A stretch of 64,000 nt of DNA, taken from the NCBI GenBank assembly GCA_001782165.1, contig MFNV01000009.1, positions 56,123 to 120,122 on the forward strand, in the 5' to 3' direction. Shown here in pieces: positions 16,913 to 56,938 of this stretch; the stretch's first letter is position 1, and each line of letters opens with the position of its first letter. A model generated the notes under the pieces. It was not told where the DNA came from, made no database searches, and saw only the letters and a program-made list of their open reading frames with translations. The DNA is from Candidatus Levybacteria bacterium RIFCSPHIGHO2_01_FULL_41_15. GTDB lineage: Bacteria > Patescibacteriota > Microgenomatia > Levybacterales > UBA12049. A program made the translations under genes and the position numbers.

Positions 16913-17941
16913 TCAGTCGCTCTTCAAAAATTGTAATTCCTTTTTTATTTTTTGGGTCAGTCTATAACTATCTGCGTGATTTAGAAAGCCTAAATAAGCT
17001 GCTATGCTTTGATTAAGCGAGTACTGTAAAATTTTGCCACTCCTGAAATCTTCAATCTTATTTTCTATCTTTTTAAATATTCTATTTCTGGTTTTTGTAC
17101 AAGGCAGAATATGATGTGGTAAAACTATGTATCCTAAGAAATCAATTCCCTGGTTATATTTTCTAATTATTATTTTCTTTGAATGTAAGTCAAGGTTAAG
17201 ATTGTCTCTTAGAAACATTGTAATTATACTAATATACTTGGACAATTTTTTTAAATCTGGATCTAGAATTATAAAATCATCTGCATAACGAATATAATAT
17301 TTAACCTTTAATTTTTGTTTCACAAATTGATCTAGCTCATTAAGATATATATTTGCAAAAAGCTGACTTGTGAGATTTCCTATGGGAATTCCTCTTTCCT
17401 TTGAAAAACTCTTTAGAATATTTTCTAAAAGCCAAGTGAGATTCCCATCTTTTATTTTTCTTTTTATAATCGAAAGAAGAATTGCGTGATCAACGCTTTC
17501 AAAAAACTTTTTAATGTCAAGTTTTAAGACAAAGCAATCTTGTTTGTAATTCTTACTTACTTTCCTTATTAATTTGGAGAGTCTTTTAACAGCTCTGTGA
17601 GTTCCTTTATTAAGTCTGCAGGAATAAGAATCGTAGATAAAAATCTGATCAAAAATAGGTTCAAGGATAGATACTATAGCATGGTGAACTATTCTATCGC
17701 GCACTTGCGCTTTATGGATATGGCGGAATTTAGGATCGTAAATGTTAAAAGCCGTATATTTACCATGTCTGTAATTCCCGCTTTTTAATTTTTTATGAAG
17801 TCCAAAAAGATTATCCTCAAGATTTATTTCAAAAAATCGTACATCTTTCTTTCTTCTTTTGTCTTTCTTAAATTCATCCCATGCTTGAAATAAATTTTCT
17901 ATTGATATAATCTTTAGATAGAGGGTATGAAAAACTTTCAC
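16913..17941 (-). CDS. DGR reverse transcriptase
   Basis: RT motifs 'RDRIVHHAI', 'FVLKLDIKKFFESVDH', 'GIPIGNLTSQLFANIYLNELD' (IGxxxSQ, DGR-specific rather than QGxxxSP) and 'YIRYADDFIIL' (YADD). 342 aa. Confidence 0.85.
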   Translation of the reverse strand: MKVFHTLYLKIISIENLFQAWDEFKKDKRRKKDVRFFEINLEDNLFGLHKKLKSGNYRHGKYTAFNIYDPKFRHIHKAQVRDRIVHHAIVSILEPIFDQIFIYDSYSCRLNKGTHRAVKRLSKLIRKVSKNYKQDCFVLKLDIKKFFESVDHAILLSIIKRKIKDGNLTWLLENILKSFSKERGIPIGNLTSQLFANIYLNELDQFVKQKLKVKYYIRYADDFIILDPDLKKLSKYISIITMFLRDNLNLDLHSKKIIIRKYNQGIDFLGYIVLPHHILPCTKTRNRIFKKIENKIEDFRSGKILQYSLNQSIAAYLGFLNHADSYRLTQKIKKELQFLKSD

Positions 17942-17953
17942 GGCACAAAATTA

Positions 17954-17988
17954 GGACAGGACAGGACAGGACAGGACAGGACAGGACA
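17954..17988. repeat. (GGACA)x7 pentanucleotide microsatellite in the divergent RT/avd promoter region
   Basis: Seven perfect tandem copies, 13-47 nt upstream of the RT start codon. Confidence 0.9.
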
Positions 17989-18041
17989 GTAGTGAGTTTA
18001 ACATACCAATTTTCCAGAAACTTTACGATTTCTACAAATTA

Positions 18042-18332
18042 TTGTACCAATATTTAAAACTGTTTCCTCAGAAAGACCGTTATACTCTCGGGCAGAAAAT
18101 AGATAATCTTTCATTAACAATTTTTGAGATGGTAATTACGGCAGGGGCAATATCAAAAGAAAAAAAGCTTCCATATCTTGAAAAATCCATAGCTACATTA
18201 AATCTCCTGAAAATACTTATAAGACTTGCGAAGGATGTTAGGGCTTTGGACAATAAAAAATATTTAGAACTTCAAGAAAACCTCCAAGAAATTGGAAAAA
18301 TGCTTGGAGGATGGAAAAAATCTCTCCTATAA
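18042..18332 (+). CDS. avd: Accessory variability determinant (Avd-like four-helix-bundle protein)
   Basis: 96 aa with a TTG start. Segments 'LFPQKDRYTLGQKIDNLSLTIFEMVITAG' and '…LQEIGKMLGGWKKSL' parallel Bordetella phage bAvd ('…IAQSIPRKHGVAREMFL…VGRILGSWI'). Divergent to the RT. Confidence 0.65.
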   Translation: MYQYLKLFPQKDRYTLGQKIDNLSLTIFEMVITAGAISKEKKLPYLEKSIATLNLLKILIRLAKDVRALDNKKYLELQENLQEIGKMLGGWKKSLL

Positions 18333-18348
18333 ATAAGGAGATGCAAGG

Positions 18349-18475
18349 CACTTCCTCAGAGCGACCGCCCCAATTCGGATTGTGATTCTGCGGATTCAGA
18401 TCCCGATTGACATTCAGGTTGCCATTCGGATTGCAGTTGGCATTGACCACCTTACCGTCATTGCGCGACCCCAGC
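18349..18475 (-). repeat. DGR template repeat (TR); adenine-bearing strand is the minus strand
   Basis: 127 nt, identical to the VR except at 15 positions, all of which are T on the plus strand (A on the minus strand) in this copy. Its minus-strand translation is Asn-rich (NANCNPNGNLNVN…, AAY codons). Confidence 0.85.
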
Positions 18476-18792
18476 TTTGTTTTGTCCTATGCCATCTTTC
18501 TTTATCACCATGGTTTTTCTTTTAAATGGAATCACCATTGAATTTTATCTGGAAGAAGTCCCGATTTAATCGGAGACACCTTCACCAGCACAGAACAAGA
18601 AGTGTCTTGCTTTTCTTGCGTACTCTTTCAAAAACCTTAATTTTTGAAATTCTGACACAGAGTTGAAAAACAACAATTTCGGCGATCCCAATCCTTGAAT
18701 CGGGATTCATTAACCTACTCTCTTTGCTATAATAGCAGAAAAATAAAAAGTTTAAAAAATTTAAGAAGAATAAAGTATTAAAGGATTAAGTT

Positions 18793-19608
18793 TTATAACA
18801 CTTCCTCAGAGCGACCGCCCCAATCCGGATGGCGATTCTGCGGATACAGACCCCGAAAGACATACAGGTAGCCATACGGATAGCAGTAGGCATAGACCAC
18901 CCTACCGTCAATGCGCGACCCCAGCAGACGTGACCATGTAGAACCTTGGTCAAGATAGTTACCATCTAGAACTTCCATTTGTCTTGAGAAAATAGCATAA
19001 GTTATGAGTCTCTGTCCTCTTGTCCCCTGCAACTCAAAATGTTTCCTAAGTTGGTCTTCGTTTGTGTCAAGGTTTGGGGAATCAATGACACCTTCAACTC
19101 TAATATACCCCGTTCTATCAAACTCATCTTCTATTGGGGTGCCTTCTCGGACACTGTAGTTTTCCAATTCGGGGAACATCTTACCAAGCGTTATGAGACC
19201 TTCTTTTCCCTTAAGTTCTTCTGGTATACCGATTGTAAACGGGGAGAGTTCTATTCCCTTGATGTCGGCAAAAGGTTTTTTTAATCGTTCTTCAGTTGCG
19301 CTGCATGGTGCAATATCAAAAGTGAGACCTTCTTCTCCTCTTGGAACTTGCCAAAAAGCCTTTTGGAAGTTGGTAACTTTCTCAGGACTAAAGGGATTTC
19401 TGTTGAGTTCTTGAGCCGCTCGTCTCAGAAGATCTAGGGGGTCAGGTGGGTAAGACTCTACTTTTTCTTTTTCTCCTTTGCCTTCAGGTAGCGGAACATC
19501 AGAAATACCATGCTTATCTAAAAGCTCCTGTCTTAAGCCAGAAATTGCCCTAGCAATTCCTTTTATCCCCATTCTACTTAGTTCTCTTTCTGCATGTCTT
19601 AGTGACAT
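18793..19608 (-). CDS. DGR target protein (271 aa) with C-terminal variable region (putative C-type-lectin/FGE-like ligand-binding fold)
   Basis: The C-terminal 42 codons are the VR and encode a Tyr-rich segment '…VVYAYCYPYGYLYVFRGLYPQNRHPDWGGRSEEVL'. No signal peptide. The N-terminal domain is unassigned. Confidence 0.75.
   Translation of the reverse strand: MSLRHAERELSRMGIKGIARAISGLRQELLDKHGISDVPLPEGKGEKEKVESYPPDPLDLLRRAAQELNRNPFSPEKVTNFQKAFWQVPRGEEGLTFDIAPCSATEERLKKPFADIKGIELSPFTIGIPEELKGKEGLITLGKMFPELENYSVREGTPIEDEFDRTGYIRVEGVIDSPNLDTNEDQLRKHFELQGTRGQRLITYAIFSRQMEVLDGNYLDQGSTWSRLLGSRIDGRVVYAYCYPYGYLYVFRGLYPQNRHPDWGGRSEEVL
18799..18925 (-). repeat. DGR variable repeat (VR) with a GC-rich IMH-like 3' end
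   Basis: Direct repeat of the TR. The 3' 23 nt (coding-strand GGGGCGGTCGCTCTGAGGAAGTG) are identical between TR and VR, and all mismatches fall at TR adenines. Confidence 0.85.
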
Positions 19609-53319: not shown

Positions 53320-54492
53320 TTACGCATAGCTTTTTCCGACGTTTGTGACTAAGATGCTGTGAGGATGGCTTTCTGCCAAAGATGCCTGTGTTATTTGAAT
53401 AAATTTTCCCTTTTTCCAAAGCTCTTTTATGCTCCTTGCCCCTACATAATACATCCCTGATTTTATTCCACCGATTGCCTGAGCAGCTAAATCCTCTACT
53501 TTTCCTTTGACAGGAACCAAACCTTCAACTCCCTCTGCAATTAGAACTCTGTCTTTATAATCTTTGTTATGAAACTCTCCTTCTGATTTCACCTTTGCTC
53601 CCTTTTTCATAGCTCCCTCTGATCCCATTGCCCTGTACTCTTTAAAATAAAATCGTTTTTGTCTTTTTTCCAAAATACTTAAAAACCTTTGAGGAACCTG
53701 TTCTCGCTTAAGTATCAGAACTCTTCCAGGAGATTCTAAGGCAGATGCAAAAAAACTTCCCATCATAACAGTTGATGCGCCACAAGCTAAGGCTTTTACA
53801 ATATCGCCTGAATATTTTATTCCGCCGTCTGCAATAATCGGAACATTTGCATTTTTTGCGACTTTTGAGATTTCCATAATGGCAGTAATTTGAGGGACAC
53901 CCATTCCAGAAATTATTCTTGTTGTGCAGATTGCGCCAGGTCCCATACCGACTCGCAAGCCATCTGCTCCCACTTGAATTAAAGCTTTTGCCCCATCCCT
54001 TGTTGCAATATTTCCCGAAATTACTTCTACTTTTTTAAAATTCTTTTTTATATATTTTGTTGCGTCAATAACTGCCTTTGAAAACCCATGAGCCGAATCA
54101 ACAACTATTACATCGATTCCAGCTTTAACCAAAGCCTCTGCTCGTTTTTCAAAGTTGCTCGCGCCGACTGCAGCTCCAACAATTAATTTTTGAGCCTTAA
54201 CCTTTTTAACTTCTTTCGCCTGATTTTCTATAGTTAAGTTGCGATGGATAATCCCGGCTCCTCCTAATTTTGCCAAAGCTATGGCAAGTTTTGCTTCAGT
54301 AACTGTGTCCATTGGGGAAGAAACAAAAGGAATAGAAAGTTTTGTTTTCTTAGTGAGTTGAGTTGATAACTCTATCTCAGGACGAGTAAAATCCGAGTAA
54401 CCGGGCACAAGAAGAACATCATCAAATGTCAGTCCCAAAGAAAATACGCTAGTACTGAGCGGAGTCGAATGTACAGATTTTTGAGGCTCCAT
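53320..54492 (-). CDS. guaB: IMP dehydrogenase family protein (CBS-less form)
   Basis: '…[13 protein letters not shown]' catalytic Cys loop and '[14 protein letters not shown]'. About 390 aa. Confidence 0.85.
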
Positions 54493-54640
54493 AATTTACT
54501 ATATAGGCAATCTTTTACTTTGTCAAGCGCAGCGAAGACCCCTCTTTAATCGCTCCGTGAGCCGTTCCGCCAACTGGCGGATGAAAAGGAGAACGGGGAG
54601 ATTGGTGGGGTCAAGATTTTAAAAATGCTATTATAAATAT

Positions 54641-54700
54641 ATGCTGGCAAAGGTAAATTCATCGGCGATTATGCGACTTATCAATTTGACAAGGTGTGAG
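54641..54700 (+). pseudogene. Decayed duplicate of the comM 5' end (first 10 codons MLAKVNSSAI identical to intact comM)
   Basis: 54639-54654 is identical over 16 nt to 55341-55356, then about 65% identical for roughly 40 nt. The frame closes after 37 codons. Confidence 0.4.
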
Positions 54701-54722
54701 ATAATATCTATGATTACAGCAT

Positions 54723-54917
54723 ATGAAAATCGTAGATCTATCAAAATTGCTTAAAAAATATAAATCAGGCTGGGTGGCAATAGATAAAAAAAACAAGGTT
54801 GTGGCTCACGGAAAAACTTTTGCCTTAACTTGTCAAAAAATTAAAAATACAAAAGACATCTTGCTTGTTCCTGCTTCTAAAAACTACTTTGGCTTTGTAA
54901 CCACATGTAATGGCTAA
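54723..54917 (+). CDS. Small DUF5678-like protein
   Basis: '…KYKSGWVAIDKKNKVVAHGKTF…' (my recollection is that this family often pairs with retropepsin-like proteases). Confidence 0.4.
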   Translation: MKIVDLSKLLKKYKSGWVAIDKKNKVVAHGKTFALTCQKIKNTKDILLVPASKNYFGFVTTCNG

Positions 54918-55308
54918 ATATCCATATTTTTCCCCAGACAATAAAACATTCAAGCCATGGATTAAGATATCTCTTGGATATAGAAAGACTCACAAAGTAA
55001 GTCCGGGTGTAATTGCGCTCGTTGATTCGGGTGCAGATGTTTGTTTTTGCAAAGAGGATATTGGAATTTGGTTGGGAATTAATTTTTCAAGAAAAGAACA
55101 GACAATTTTTACTACCGCAAACAGAAGTACGTTCCGAGCCAAAAAAGAAACGATTACATTATATGCCTGTGGCAAAAACTATGAGTGCCTCTTTTATTTT
55201 ACTAACGATTTGCCCCATGAAACACCAATTATTCTTGGGCAAGTGGGCTTCTTCGATCATTTTAAAATTACTTTTGATTTAAGAAATAAAGAGATAGAAA
55301 TCCTCTAG
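54910..55308 (+). CDS. Retropepsin-like aspartic protease (clan AA)
   Basis: 'VIALVDSGADVCF' D(S/T)GA active-site motif. 132 aa. Confidence 0.62.
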   Translation: MAKYPYFSPDNKTFKPWIKISLGYRKTHKVSPGVIALVDSGADVCFCKEDIGIWLGINFSRKEQTIFTTANRSTFRAKKETITLYACGKNYECLFYFTNDLPHETPIILGQVGFFDHFKITFDLRNKEIEIL

Positions 55309-55342
55309 CTTATCTTCATAATCTTTCTGTTATAATTTTTAT

Positions 55343-56938
55343 ATGCTGGCAAAGGTGAATTCCAGTGCGATTGTCGGACTTGATGCAGTGCCGATTGAGG
55401 TTGAAGTTGATATTGCCTCACAAGGACTGCCTTCTTTCACGATAGTGGGGCTTCCGGATAAGGCTGTTGAAGAATCAAAAGAGAGAGTAAGATCTGCTAT
55501 TAAAAACTCAGGGGCTGACTTTCCTGCCAAAAGAATAACTGTCAATCTTGCACCTGCCGATCTTCCAAAAGAAGGACCTTCCTATGATCTTCCTATAGCA
55601 ATAGGAATTCTTCTTGCAAATGGTCAATTTGAGGCCGATATTTCCGATGCTCTGTTTATAGGAGAGCTTGCTTTAGATGGTAGACTTAGGCATACCAACG
55701 GTATTTTATCCCAGATAATAATGGCAAAAAATAGAAGAATTAAAAGAGTTTTTATTCCCGAAAAAGATGTAAAAGAAGCTTCAATTTTGACGGGTATCAA
55801 GATTTATCCTGCCGACAATCTTATTTCTCTTCTTAAACATTTCTCAGGCGAAGAAGAGATTGCACCTGCAAAAAATATTAATATAGATTCCCTATCAAAA
55901 GACGTTTCGTTTGACTTTGATATGGCAGATGTCAAAGGGCAGGAGCAGGCAAAAAGGGCTTTTGAAATTGCAGCAGCAGGTGCTCACAATATTTTAATTA
56001 AAGGCCCGCCGGGCTCTGGAAAAACAATGCTTGCCCGAACGCTTCCCTCCATTCTACCCCGTCTTACTTTTGATGAAGCTTTGGAAGCAACCCGAATCTA
56101 TAGCATCTCAGGGCTTTTAGACAACAACGCTCTCATAATTAAAAGGCCTTTCCGCGCACCGCACCATACGACTTCTCATGTAGGACTTATAGGCGGAGGA
56201 ACATATCCTAAGCCTGGAGAAATTTCTCTTGCCCACCGCGGCGTTTTATTTTTGGATGAGTTTCCTGAATTCCCCCGCTTCGTCCTTGAGGCTTTAAGAC
56301 AACCAATGGAAGATGGGATTATAACAATTTCAAGATCATCAGGCCGGCTTAAATTCCCTGCCAAATTCATGTTGGTTGCCGCACAGAATCCATGCCCGTG
56401 TGGCTATCTTGGGGACAAGTCAAATAAATGCAAGTGTTTATACAGTCAAATTATCAAATATCAAAAGAGGGTCTCGGGACCTCTTCTTGATAGGATTGAC
56501 ATTCATCTTGAAATCCAGCCGGTTAGAACTGATAAACTAACGGCAGATGATAAAAGCCTGCCCGCCCACCAGCGGGTAAAAACCTCAAAAGAAATCCAAA
56601 AGAAGGTACAGAATGCTAGAGATATCCAGCTTAAAAGATTTAAAAGCAACTTGTCTGCTCGCCTCGCGGCGGAGCGGACCGGCAGGCAGGGAAAAATTAC
56701 TTCAAATTCCGAAATGTCAACAAGAGACATAAAGGAACTTTGCAAGCTATCCGAAGAGTGTTTGGAAATTTTAAGGCTTGCGGTTGCGCGCATGAGCCTT
56801 TCGGCAAGATCTTATTATAAAACTATTAAGCTTGCCCGGACAATTGCAGATTTAGAAGAGATAAAAGAAATAAAACCTGTTCATGTCGCAGAAGCTCTGC
56901 AGTATAGACCAAGGCAAGAAACAACAATCAGTTATTAG
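55343..56938 (+). CDS. comM: YifB/ComM Mg-chelatase-like AAA+ ATPase
   Basis: ChlI-like AAA+ ATPase with Walker A 'GPPGSGKTM'. Typical family length (531 aa). Confidence 0.9.
   Translation: MLAKVNSSAIVGLDAVPIEVEVDIASQGLPSFTIVGLPDKAVEESKERVRSAIKNSGADFPAKRITVNLAPADLPKEGPSYDLPIAIGILLANGQFEADISDALFIGELALDGRLRHTNGILSQIIMAKNRRIKRVFIPEKDVKEASILTGIKIYPADNLISLLKHFSGEEEIAPAKNINIDSLSKDVSFDFDMADVKGQEQAKRAFEIAAAGAHNILIKGPPGSGKTMLARTLPSILPRLTFDEALEATRIYSISGLLDNNALIIKRPFRAPHHTTSHVGLIGGGTYPKPGEISLAHRGVLFLDEFPEFPRFVLEALRQPMEDGIITISRSSGRLKFPAKFMLVAAQNPCPCGYLGDKSNKCKCLYSQIIKYQKRVSGPLLDRIDIHLEIQPVRTDKLTADDKSLPAHQRVKTSKEIQKKVQNARDIQLKRFKSNLSARLAAERTGRQGKITSNSEMSTRDIKELCKLSEECLEILRLAVARMSLSARSYYKTIKLARTIADLEEIKEIKPVHVAEALQYRPRQETTISY

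Follow-up and report, generated by a model that had tools for sequence, protein, structure and literature searches.

A repeated comM start around a two-gene cassette in a Levybacteria genome: the relic of a mobile element?

Why would a bacterium carry the start of a conserved gene twice, with two small genes set between the copies? The gene is comM (yifB), and the question is raised by a 64,000-nucleotide (nt) stretch of contig MFNV01000009.1 from Candidatus Levybacteria bacterium RIFCSPHIGHO2_01_FULL_41_15, all of which we call the window. A first-pass annotation had read the arrangement as a small insertion that brought comM a replacement 5' end and left the original fragment displaced on the far side. 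We posit, with somewhat better than even confidence, that the region is the decayed relic of a mobile element that inserted itself into the 5' part of comM and brought a substitute start for the gene with it. The integration step, by a large serine recombinase (LSR), is seen in a sister genome; for the window we infer it, together with the deletions that would have followed.

A repeated gene start

A repeat search pairs positions 54626-54679 with 55328-55381 as a direct repeat of 54 nt, with 76% identity and a spacing of 702 nt. The exact core is 17 nt long (TATATGCTGGCAAAGGT, at 54638 and 55340; the first-pass annotation had counted 16) and has no third occurrence in the window. A gapped local alignment of the two copies (54628-54679 and 55327-55381) scores 45, against 17.3±2.2 (maximum, 31) for shuffled sequence and 18.4±2.6 (maximum, 32) for about 3,000 random 230-nt segments of the window. 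The duplication is thus real, some 10 standard deviations above random, and the low-complexity coincidence that had been named as a possible refutation does not survive. Past the core, identities counted by hand number 17 in the 25 nt that reach codon 13 and 4 in the 15 nt after it; the first-pass figure of about 65% thus fits those 25 nt, and the full 40 nt for which it was given come to about 52%. The coding similarity breaks off abruptly at 54679, after CTT, and the left copy (MLAKVNSSAIMRL...) therefore still encodes the start of ComM (MLAKVNSSAIVGL...) as far as codon 13, a little beyond the 10 codons first credited to it.

Beyond what the first-pass annotation had listed, the similarity extends about 19 to 33 nt upstream of the ATG, across an extended -10-like box (TGnTATnAT) that ends 6 to 8 nt before the ATG in each copy; because of this spacing, comM in the window looks leaderless or nearly so. 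As had been described, only two genes lie between the copies, and comM itself is intact. The features are as follows, with amino acids abbreviated aa, open reading frames ORF, and our own labels for other loci and contigs beginning with L.

53320..54492, minus strand: guaB (IMP dehydrogenase; Pfam IMPDH, 3.2e-130), the ancestral left neighbour of comM, which it adjoins in L024 and L026
54622..54679, plus strand: left copy, comprising a displaced comM promoter (extended -10 TGCTATTAT), ATG at 54641 and 13 codons; now a pseudo-start; the block common to the window and L021 begins at 54622
54641..54754, plus strand: 37-aa ORF running from the left copy into the start of the DUF5678 gene; an ORF of the same length occurs in L011/L021
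54686..54714, plus strand: the cassette's own sigma-70-like promoter (TTGACA-17-TATGAT, 11 of 12 matches), ending 8 nt before the DUF5678 ATG and conserved in L021
54723..54917, plus strand: DUF5678 protein, 64 aa, the first cargo gene (Pfam PF18929, 6.6e-8, 32.7 bits against a cut-off of 23.2), with an 8-nt overlap with the protease gene
54910..55308, plus strand: retropepsin-like aspartic protease, 132 aa, with D39-S40-G41-A42 and I108-L109-G110
55327..55381, plus strand: right copy, comprising the promoter (TGTTATAAT) and start of the functional comM; begins 19 nt past the protease stop; orthologous to copy c2 in L021/L103
55343..56938, plus strand: comM/yifB, intact, 531 aa (TIGR00368, 596 bits against a cut-off of 362, 4.1e-179; Pfam ChlI, Mg_chelatase and Mg_chelatase_C)
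55436..55442, plus strand: comM codons 32-34 (TTCACGA), uninterrupted in the window; counterpart of the LSR crossover TTTACAA of relatives, from a junction alignment of L103 c4, L023, L061 and L063 with intact comM genes

The full-length match above the curated cut-off and all three domains identify the window protein as a ComM/YifB Mg-chelatase-like AAA+ ATPase. The distance from the protease stop to the comM ATG is 34 nt. The 37-aa ORF differs from its sister counterpart at 10 of 37 residues (hand translation), its blocks being 79 to 86% identical in nucleotides, and it is unlikely to encode a functional peptide.

An insertion between guaB and comM

Which arrangement came first? The window matches the Candidatus Levybacteria metagenome-assembled genome GCA_001783985.1, and its gene order around comM is rpoD(-), dnaG(-), guaB(-), DUF5678(+), the 132-aa ORF(+), comM(+), P-type ATPase(+). 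We scanned species-representative genomes with ComM and obtained 80 Microgenomates loci. In the closest relative without the duplication (L024; ComM, 80% identical), guaB(-) is followed after 75 nt by comM(+), with no module between them; in L026 the guaB-comM distance is 227 nt, and in many Levybacteria dnaG(-) is followed by comM after about 115 nt. None of the 80 surveyed loci has the DUF5678/protease pair beside comM. Because guaB and comM stand 75 nt apart without the module in L024, the pair is, as judged from gene order, an insertion between guaB and comM, and related genomes (L024 and the dnaG-comM relatives) preserve the unoccupied target site that an LSR-type element would leave. The synteny comparison that had been proposed thus comes out in favor of an insertion.

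Which copy is the original? The left copy is contiguous with the guaB-side spacer, and its promoter (TTAAAAATGCTATTATA) is closer to the native promoter of L024 (TTTTAATGCTATTATA) than the right-copy promoter (CTTTCTGTTATAATT) is. This fits a displaced original on the left and an imported start on the right; the left copy is a dead fragment on the ancestral guaB-side spacer, and we infer that the right copy came in with the cassette. Together with the empty site, the promoter match supports the original proposal that a replacement 5' end was imported and the old fragment pushed aside.

The spacer has a peculiarity of its own. Immediately left of the displaced start, positions 54527-54616 form a GC-rich block (59% GC against 37% for the window) with a predicted fold into an extended hairpin (-39.8 kcal/mol; z = -3.4). 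The block matches nothing in Rfam, has no second copy in the window and does not occur at the empty site of L024. An Rfam scan of 54300-55500 returned matches at chance level only, and we rejected both this block and the comM repeat as known RNAs.

A serine recombinase element in a sister genome

The first-pass annotation had noted that no integrase is present and had left the mechanism unclear. The first half of that statement stands, in that no recombinase gene lies in or near the cassette; for the mechanism there is now a candidate, as a sister genome carries an intact LSR element at this very gene start. The protease has its nearest homologue, at 88% identity, in sister Levybacteria (L011/L021/L103), where it is found both on a JGI contig of 112 kb and in GCA_001782555.1. 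There, the window's cassette sits between the same two comM-start copies, as the first unit of an array with four comM starts (counted in L021).

Left flank: guaA, guaB and a 429-aa gene
c1: comM start, 13 codons
Cargo 1: DUF5678 and protease genes
c2: comM start, 21 codons
Cargo 2, minus strand: PIN toxin-antitoxin pair
c3: comM start, 12 codons
Cargo 3, minus strand: CopG/BrnT pair
c4: comM start, 33 codons, with a protein 100% identical to the N terminus of window ComM
Element: a mixed set of genes over about 8.4 kb, the last of them encoding a 557-aa LSR

Three domains are recognized in this LSR: Resolvase, Recombinase and Zn_ribbon_recom. In L103, in which the contig is extended, the 3' end of its ORF overlaps an intact 519-aa comM by about 118 nt, and the first 33 codons of this functional comM (MIAKVQSS...) are only 67% identical to the displaced c4. 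A second LSR on another contig (L104), 76 to 77% identical to the first, overlaps comM by about 100 nt. The overlap, and a 33-codon surrogate start unlike c4, show that the sister element integrates at about codon 33 of comM and restores the gene with a start that it carries.

Did the window and its sister inherit the cassette from a common ancestor? The whole unit (left copy, module and right copy) is 85.2% identical between them over 784 nt, and the two cassette coding sequences are about 87% identical; the flanking genes are less similar (rpoD/dnaG, 69%; guaB, 76%; comM/ATPase, 68%). Because the unit is more similar than its flanks, it is possibly younger than the split between the two species. 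On these comparisons, the data point to a unit that was exchanged after the species diverged or that is under unusual constraint, and either would fit a mobile history.

In the same sister contig, DnaG (L021, 399-3347) is 982 aa long, with a faint LAGLIDADG match, against 596 aa in the window, which suggests an intein-like insert.

Displaced starts in other lineages

Displaced comM starts upstream of an intact comM occur at 5 of the 80 loci and on one further contig; the same architecture, with different cargo, is found in at least seven lineages.

L023: displaced start of 36 codons; cargo, a phosphoribosyltransferase and a 209-aa gene
L061: displaced start of 36 codons; cargo, two GH130 genes
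L063: displaced start of 36 codons; cargo, Fic and a 68-aa gene
L028: displaced start of 17 codons, the copies 98% identical over 54 nt; cargo, Fic
L089: displaced start of 9 codons plus about 69 nt upstream; cargo, a 513-aa gene
L107 (a separate Logan contig): two starts of 20 and 25 codons with a 59-aa and Fic pair between them; further upstream, a MazE/PIN pair and a DUF5678/protease pair

In L023, the copies are 97.5% identical over 81 nt, with diverged 5' parts. Across about 12 events, the displaced starts measure 2, 9, 12, 13, 17, 20, 21, 25, 33, 36, 36 and 36 codons; none is longer than the LSR crossover point, and the lengths spread below that point and pile up at it, longer fragments being the easier ones to detect by tblastn. 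Four independent starts of 33 to 36 codons (L103 c4, L023, L061 and L063) all end at TTTACAA, after which come two related kinds of element arm (e.g., GGAACRCAAT); the arm of the L103 element reads ACGAGGGAACACAATCC... Given the common end and the related arms, these sequences mark the left junctions of one LSR family. The shorter displaced starts show no shared motif after them when inspected by eye; we therefore rejected a single fixed attachment (att) site for this class, and the pattern suggests illegitimate ends instead of a second att site.

Locus L063 shows an intermediate form: its two cargo genes, one of them Fic, follow an LSR-type left junction that is still intact, no LSR is present, and 27 nt separate the cargo stop from the comM promoter, a right side much like that of the window. 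In L026 (6021-6092), an orphan comM promoter with ATGC (TGTTATTATAAATATATGC) precedes the real start by 70 nt, with no cargo separating the two, and is probably the last trace of a lost cassette.

By tblastn, no relative of the LSR was found in any of the 80 comM loci, and the scanned cargo proteins (Fic, three times; PIN; BrnT/CopG; phosphoribosyltransferase; GH130) include no recombinase family. A scan of IMG/VR with the ComM N terminus returned only high-GC contigs in which comM is cut further downstream.

The cargo

What does the cassette carry? The 132-aa ORF is, on its predicted structure, a genuine retropepsin-like protein. It has the catalytic D-S/T-G-A motif, the hydrophobic-hydrophobic-Gly motif and the retropepsin fold of clan AA; its AlphaFold2 model has a mean predicted local distance difference test (pLDDT) score of 93.5, and the top Foldseek matches are Rickettsia APRc (5c9f), HIV-1 protease and Ddi1 (probability, 1.00; TM-score, 0.55 to 0.75). 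In 28 homologues, D39, S40, G41 and I108-L109-G110 are invariant and A42 nearly so. The protein falls below the curated sequence cut-offs (13 bits against 24 to 28 for PF13650/PF13975; 15 bits against 57 for TIGR03698), and some of its homologues do carry PF13975/PF13650 matches. The protease type had been called rare in bacteria; it is not rare in this group, given the 152 homologues found in a protein search, of which those with a named source all come from Microgenomates or other Patescibacteria.

The DUF5678 protein has 77 homologues and is modeled by AlphaFold2 as a small alpha/beta protein (pLDDT, 86). It has no significant match in the PDB by sequence or by fold, and calling it an antitoxin is therefore a guess. 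At each of the seven loci that we examined, which represent five different neighborhoods, a small gene lies directly upstream of the protease gene, overlapping or nearly so, and in six of the seven it has a Pfam DUF5678 match. Is the pair always found next to duplicated gene ends, as might have been supposed? It is not: there are no significant flanking repeats around the pair at the five other loci (L015, L018, L107, L108 and L109). We therefore rejected duplication as a property of the gene pair; it belongs, on this comparison of sites, to the comM locus.

Small, overlapping, co-oriented genes with their own promoter in varying contexts are the layout of type II toxin-antitoxin systems. The pair contains no known toxin or antitoxin family, and the Pfam/NCBIfam matches of the protease are weak ones to aspartic-protease families or fall on unrelated families, none of them of toxins; the protease also matches the PADLOC model PDC-M52B (1.6e-9), and the DUF5678 protein matches no PADLOC model. 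By analogy, the pair resembles a toxin-antitoxin or defence module, which we offer as a candidate role only; the cargo is probably a self-stabilizing or defence-type module built around a predicted active aspartic protease. The literature on DUF5678, on retropepsin-like proteins with toxin-antitoxin systems and on serine recombinases of candidate-phyla-radiation (CPR) bacteria yielded nothing useful.

Origin of the cassette

In total, these observations are consistent with a proposed history in three steps. An LSR-type element would integrate at comM codons 32-34 (TTTACAA), as would each unit of an array, pushing the resident start to the left and supplying a new one. Deletions would then take out the recombinase, the left arm of the element and part of the displaced start, locking the remnant in place. 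Two things would survive: pairs of a toxin-antitoxin-like or defence-like kind, as cargo that resists loss, and the promoter on which comM depends. In the window, this process would have halted after one unit, and comM would therefore stay functional, with the cassette fixed.

Several observations weigh against this decayed-element reading. The window lacks any match to the L103 LSR by tblastn over its 64 kb, and there is no recombinase gene in or near the cassette; the surrounding genes are all accounted for, and it is in the sister (L021/L103) that the LSR element is found. The left copy stops at codon 13, short of the LSR site at codons 32-34, and has no element arm; with the junction absent, an LSR origin of this unit therefore rests on the decay series. 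The surrogate starts in L103 and L104 are without the canonical TGnTATTATAAAT promoter that is present in all of the short copies, so that the ancestral element would need to have differed somewhat from these. The decay model also needs two deletions, one on each side, that end near gene boundaries. No empty site was found within the window's species, all 15 of the 15 contigs with identical GuaB carrying the cassette, and no presence/absence polymorphism was seen; among the 80 loci, there are no close genome pairs with and without a short-class cassette, the best matches being about 70% identical in nucleotides. Finally, IMG/VR scans with the LSR protein and with a comM-start DNA pattern turned up no free element or phage form.

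Could the cassette have arrived without a recombinase? A circular DNA, or a linear one with terminal repeats, that held the cargo and a comM-start fragment (about -25 to +39) could have entered by a RecA-type Campbell single crossover or, after DNA uptake, by homology-facilitated illegitimate recombination. Such an event would flank the cargo left and right with the shared fragment and keep one comM intact, and the cassette could spread to other, similar comM starts. Such insertion-duplication is a serious possibility, which we nonetheless hold to be distinctly less probable than decay of an LSR element. It would account for coding-side ends that vary from 9 to 25 codons with junctions that share no motif to the eye; for the near-identical copies of L028 and the mosaic of L023, which are what homologous exchange produces; for a unit, both copies included, that is more similar between two species than its flanking genes are; and for the lack of a recombinase in or beside any short-class cassette. 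It leaves the 36-codon ceiling at the LSR crossover unexplained, as longer homologous fragments would work equally well, and likewise the origin of the first circle of cargo and comM start; moreover, the class of 33 to 36 codons clearly has LSR-type element arms.

Is the gene start itself a platform? We speculate, quite tentatively, that the comM start in Levybacteria and related Microgenomates is a dedicated capture platform for minimal cassettes, each with a promoter-plus-start mimic, that are inserted serially and transferred in trans between genomes through a serine recombinase specific for comM or through homologous exchange between starts, with a cargo of mostly toxin-antitoxin, Fic or defence-like genes.

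A further proposal, which we consider unlikely, is mobilization in trans by a second recombinase, tyrosine or serine, encoded elsewhere, with the 17-nt TATATGCTGGCAAAGGT as its crossover core; minimal circular cassettes with comM-start mimics would then be handled as integron cassettes or cis-mobilizable elements are. In its favor, all copies in all lineages share the region from about -25 to +27, with exact blocks of 12 to 17 nt at the ATG (by eye), and the minimal one- or two-gene arrays, several of them of toxin-antitoxin type, resemble chromosomal integron arrays. Against it, no array was seen to have such a recombinase in its vicinity, the genes annotated to a distance of about 3 kb from the window cassette all being housekeeping ones, and IMG/VR yielded no excised form. 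Constraint on comM is, moreover, strongest in the very block that the copies share (promoter, ATG and conserved N terminus), so that no att function is needed to explain its identity.

That there was no mobile element at all, only a local tandem duplication or a chance similarity beside two ordinary neighbor genes, is barely credible: the sequence is AT rich and the copies are short, but chance and plain local duplication are ruled out by an alignment about 10 standard deviations above random and by the empty site in relatives, and at least seven lineages show the architecture, with differing cargo.

Other observations at comM and in the window

Is the 5' end the only part of comM that receives insertions? 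In strain variants of the window's species (L003, 10434-13276; also L007 and L111), comM matches only to residues 352-355; the break adjoins the NPCPCG motif at residue 349 and is followed by a 58-aa gene and an FtsK/SpoIIIE-like gene on the opposite strand. The pattern has the look of a further insertion site within comM, located where LSR proviruses split the gene in the proteobacterial contigs L115/L116, although an assembly chimera could also produce it. Duplicated fragments of the comM 3' end (L032, 12997-13185, residues 464-526; L040, 14800-14895, residues 495-526) lie about 3 kb downstream of intact comM with unrelated genes between, and it seems that the 3' end also receives insertions that restore the gene end. 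Within comM in the window (56555-56690), short GC-rich stretches (e.g., CTGCCCGCCCACCAGCGGG and CTCGCCTCGCGGCGGAGCGGACCGGCAGGCAGGG) interrupt the AT-rich coding sequence, and the ComM of L023 has a similar extra ILPAGRQG segment at another position; these stretches look like small in-frame insertions.

Elsewhere in the window, a 342-aa reverse transcriptase with a YADD motif (16913-17941, minus strand), a 96-aa Avd-like ORF (18042-18332) and a 127-nt repeat (18349-18475 and 18799-18925; 88% identity), the second copy of which lies at the 3' end of a 271-aa ORF (18793-19608, minus strand), look like a diversity-generating retroelement (16913-19608), in which the repeats fit a template/variable pair.

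Significance

The genomes of CPR bacteria are tiny, and descriptions of their mobile elements are few. The comM locus offers a testable picture of how they could gain and retain accessory genes without losing a conserved gene: an element would target the first 34 codons of comM and bring a replacement promoter and N terminus, and the site would accumulate the stripped-down remains of successive arrivals. A serine recombinase is also identified for which comM codons 32-34 form a definite natural target, open to direct test, and the widespread DUF5678 and retropepsin-like pair is singled out as a mobile module with a possible role in defence or addiction. If the cassettes were mobilized in trans, they would reveal a new kind of gene-capture site; if the comM start were a capture platform, it would amount to an integron-like system that uses a gene start instead of attI/attC, in very small genomes.

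Comparison with known systems

To what extent does any described system do the same? The closest published architecture is that of the ssrA-specific islands of Dehalococcoides, in which the serine integrase DsiB overlaps the target-gene repeat, and which stand in tandem with direct repeats between them, some of them without an integration module (PMC3146451). In both systems, the 3' end of a large serine recombinase gene runs over the target-gene repeat, the units lie in tandem with target-gene repeats, some units lack integration genes, and a conserved single-copy target stays intact. In Dehalococcoides, the target is the 3' end of the transfer-messenger RNA gene, with a 20-bp repeat, whereas at comM it is the 5' end of a protein gene, so that the comM element, unlike those islands, has to bring 33 codons along with a start codon and a promoter; most comM units, again unlike the islands, have shrunk to one or two genes.

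The closest functional parallel is the SXT/R391 family at prfC, as both restore the 5' end of a conserved gene. SXT/R391 integrates into the 5' end of prfC and gives it a new promoter and N-terminal codons, and the gene remains functional; SXT is a conjugative element of about 100 kb with a tyrosine integrase and a 17-bp core, and it is not known to form arrays of relic cassettes.

In Acinetobacter, comM is itself an insertion hotspot for AbaR/Tn6022-type islands, and the AbaR islands move by Tn7-like transposition. These islands and LSR prophages share the target gene with the Levybacteria element but interrupt it without restoring it, at a different site (the NPCPCG region, residue 349) and with no duplicated gene start. 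In line with this, two proteobacterial contigs in IMG/VR (L115 and L116) have comM cut at residues 339-350, and in L115 a relative of the LSR lies beside it.

Cis-mobilizable elements, tandem accretion at att sites and tycheposon-type arrays depend on tyrosine recombinases at tRNA genes or the 3' ends of genes. Like the comM units, they place recombinase-less cargo between target-gene repeats, beside a complete element; their repeat ends are fixed by the att core, whereas the coding-side ends at comM vary from 2 to 36 codons. Chromosomal integron arrays also gather small cassettes serially at one site, and several of the cassettes at comM are toxin-antitoxin ones; unlike in integron arrays, the comM repeats are gene starts with promoters, and the cassettes lie in both orientations with promoters of their own. 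No tyrosine-recombinase family turned up in the scanned comM cargo, in which no dedicated search for IntI or attC was made.

The protease has a relative of its own kind in Rickettsia APRc (PDB 5c9f), with which it shares the retropepsin fold and the DSG catalytic motif at 14 to 18% identity to the APRc chains in Foldseek alignments. The protease matches the PDC-M52B profile of the PADLOC candidate system PDC-M52 and the DUF5678 protein matches no PADLOC model, so that the pair is at most a candidate for that system. What is distinct here is, first, that a protein gene of a CPR lineage regains its 5' end from a serine-recombinase element and, second, that this element stands with an array of minimal relic cassettes, each of which ends in a promoter-bearing gene start.

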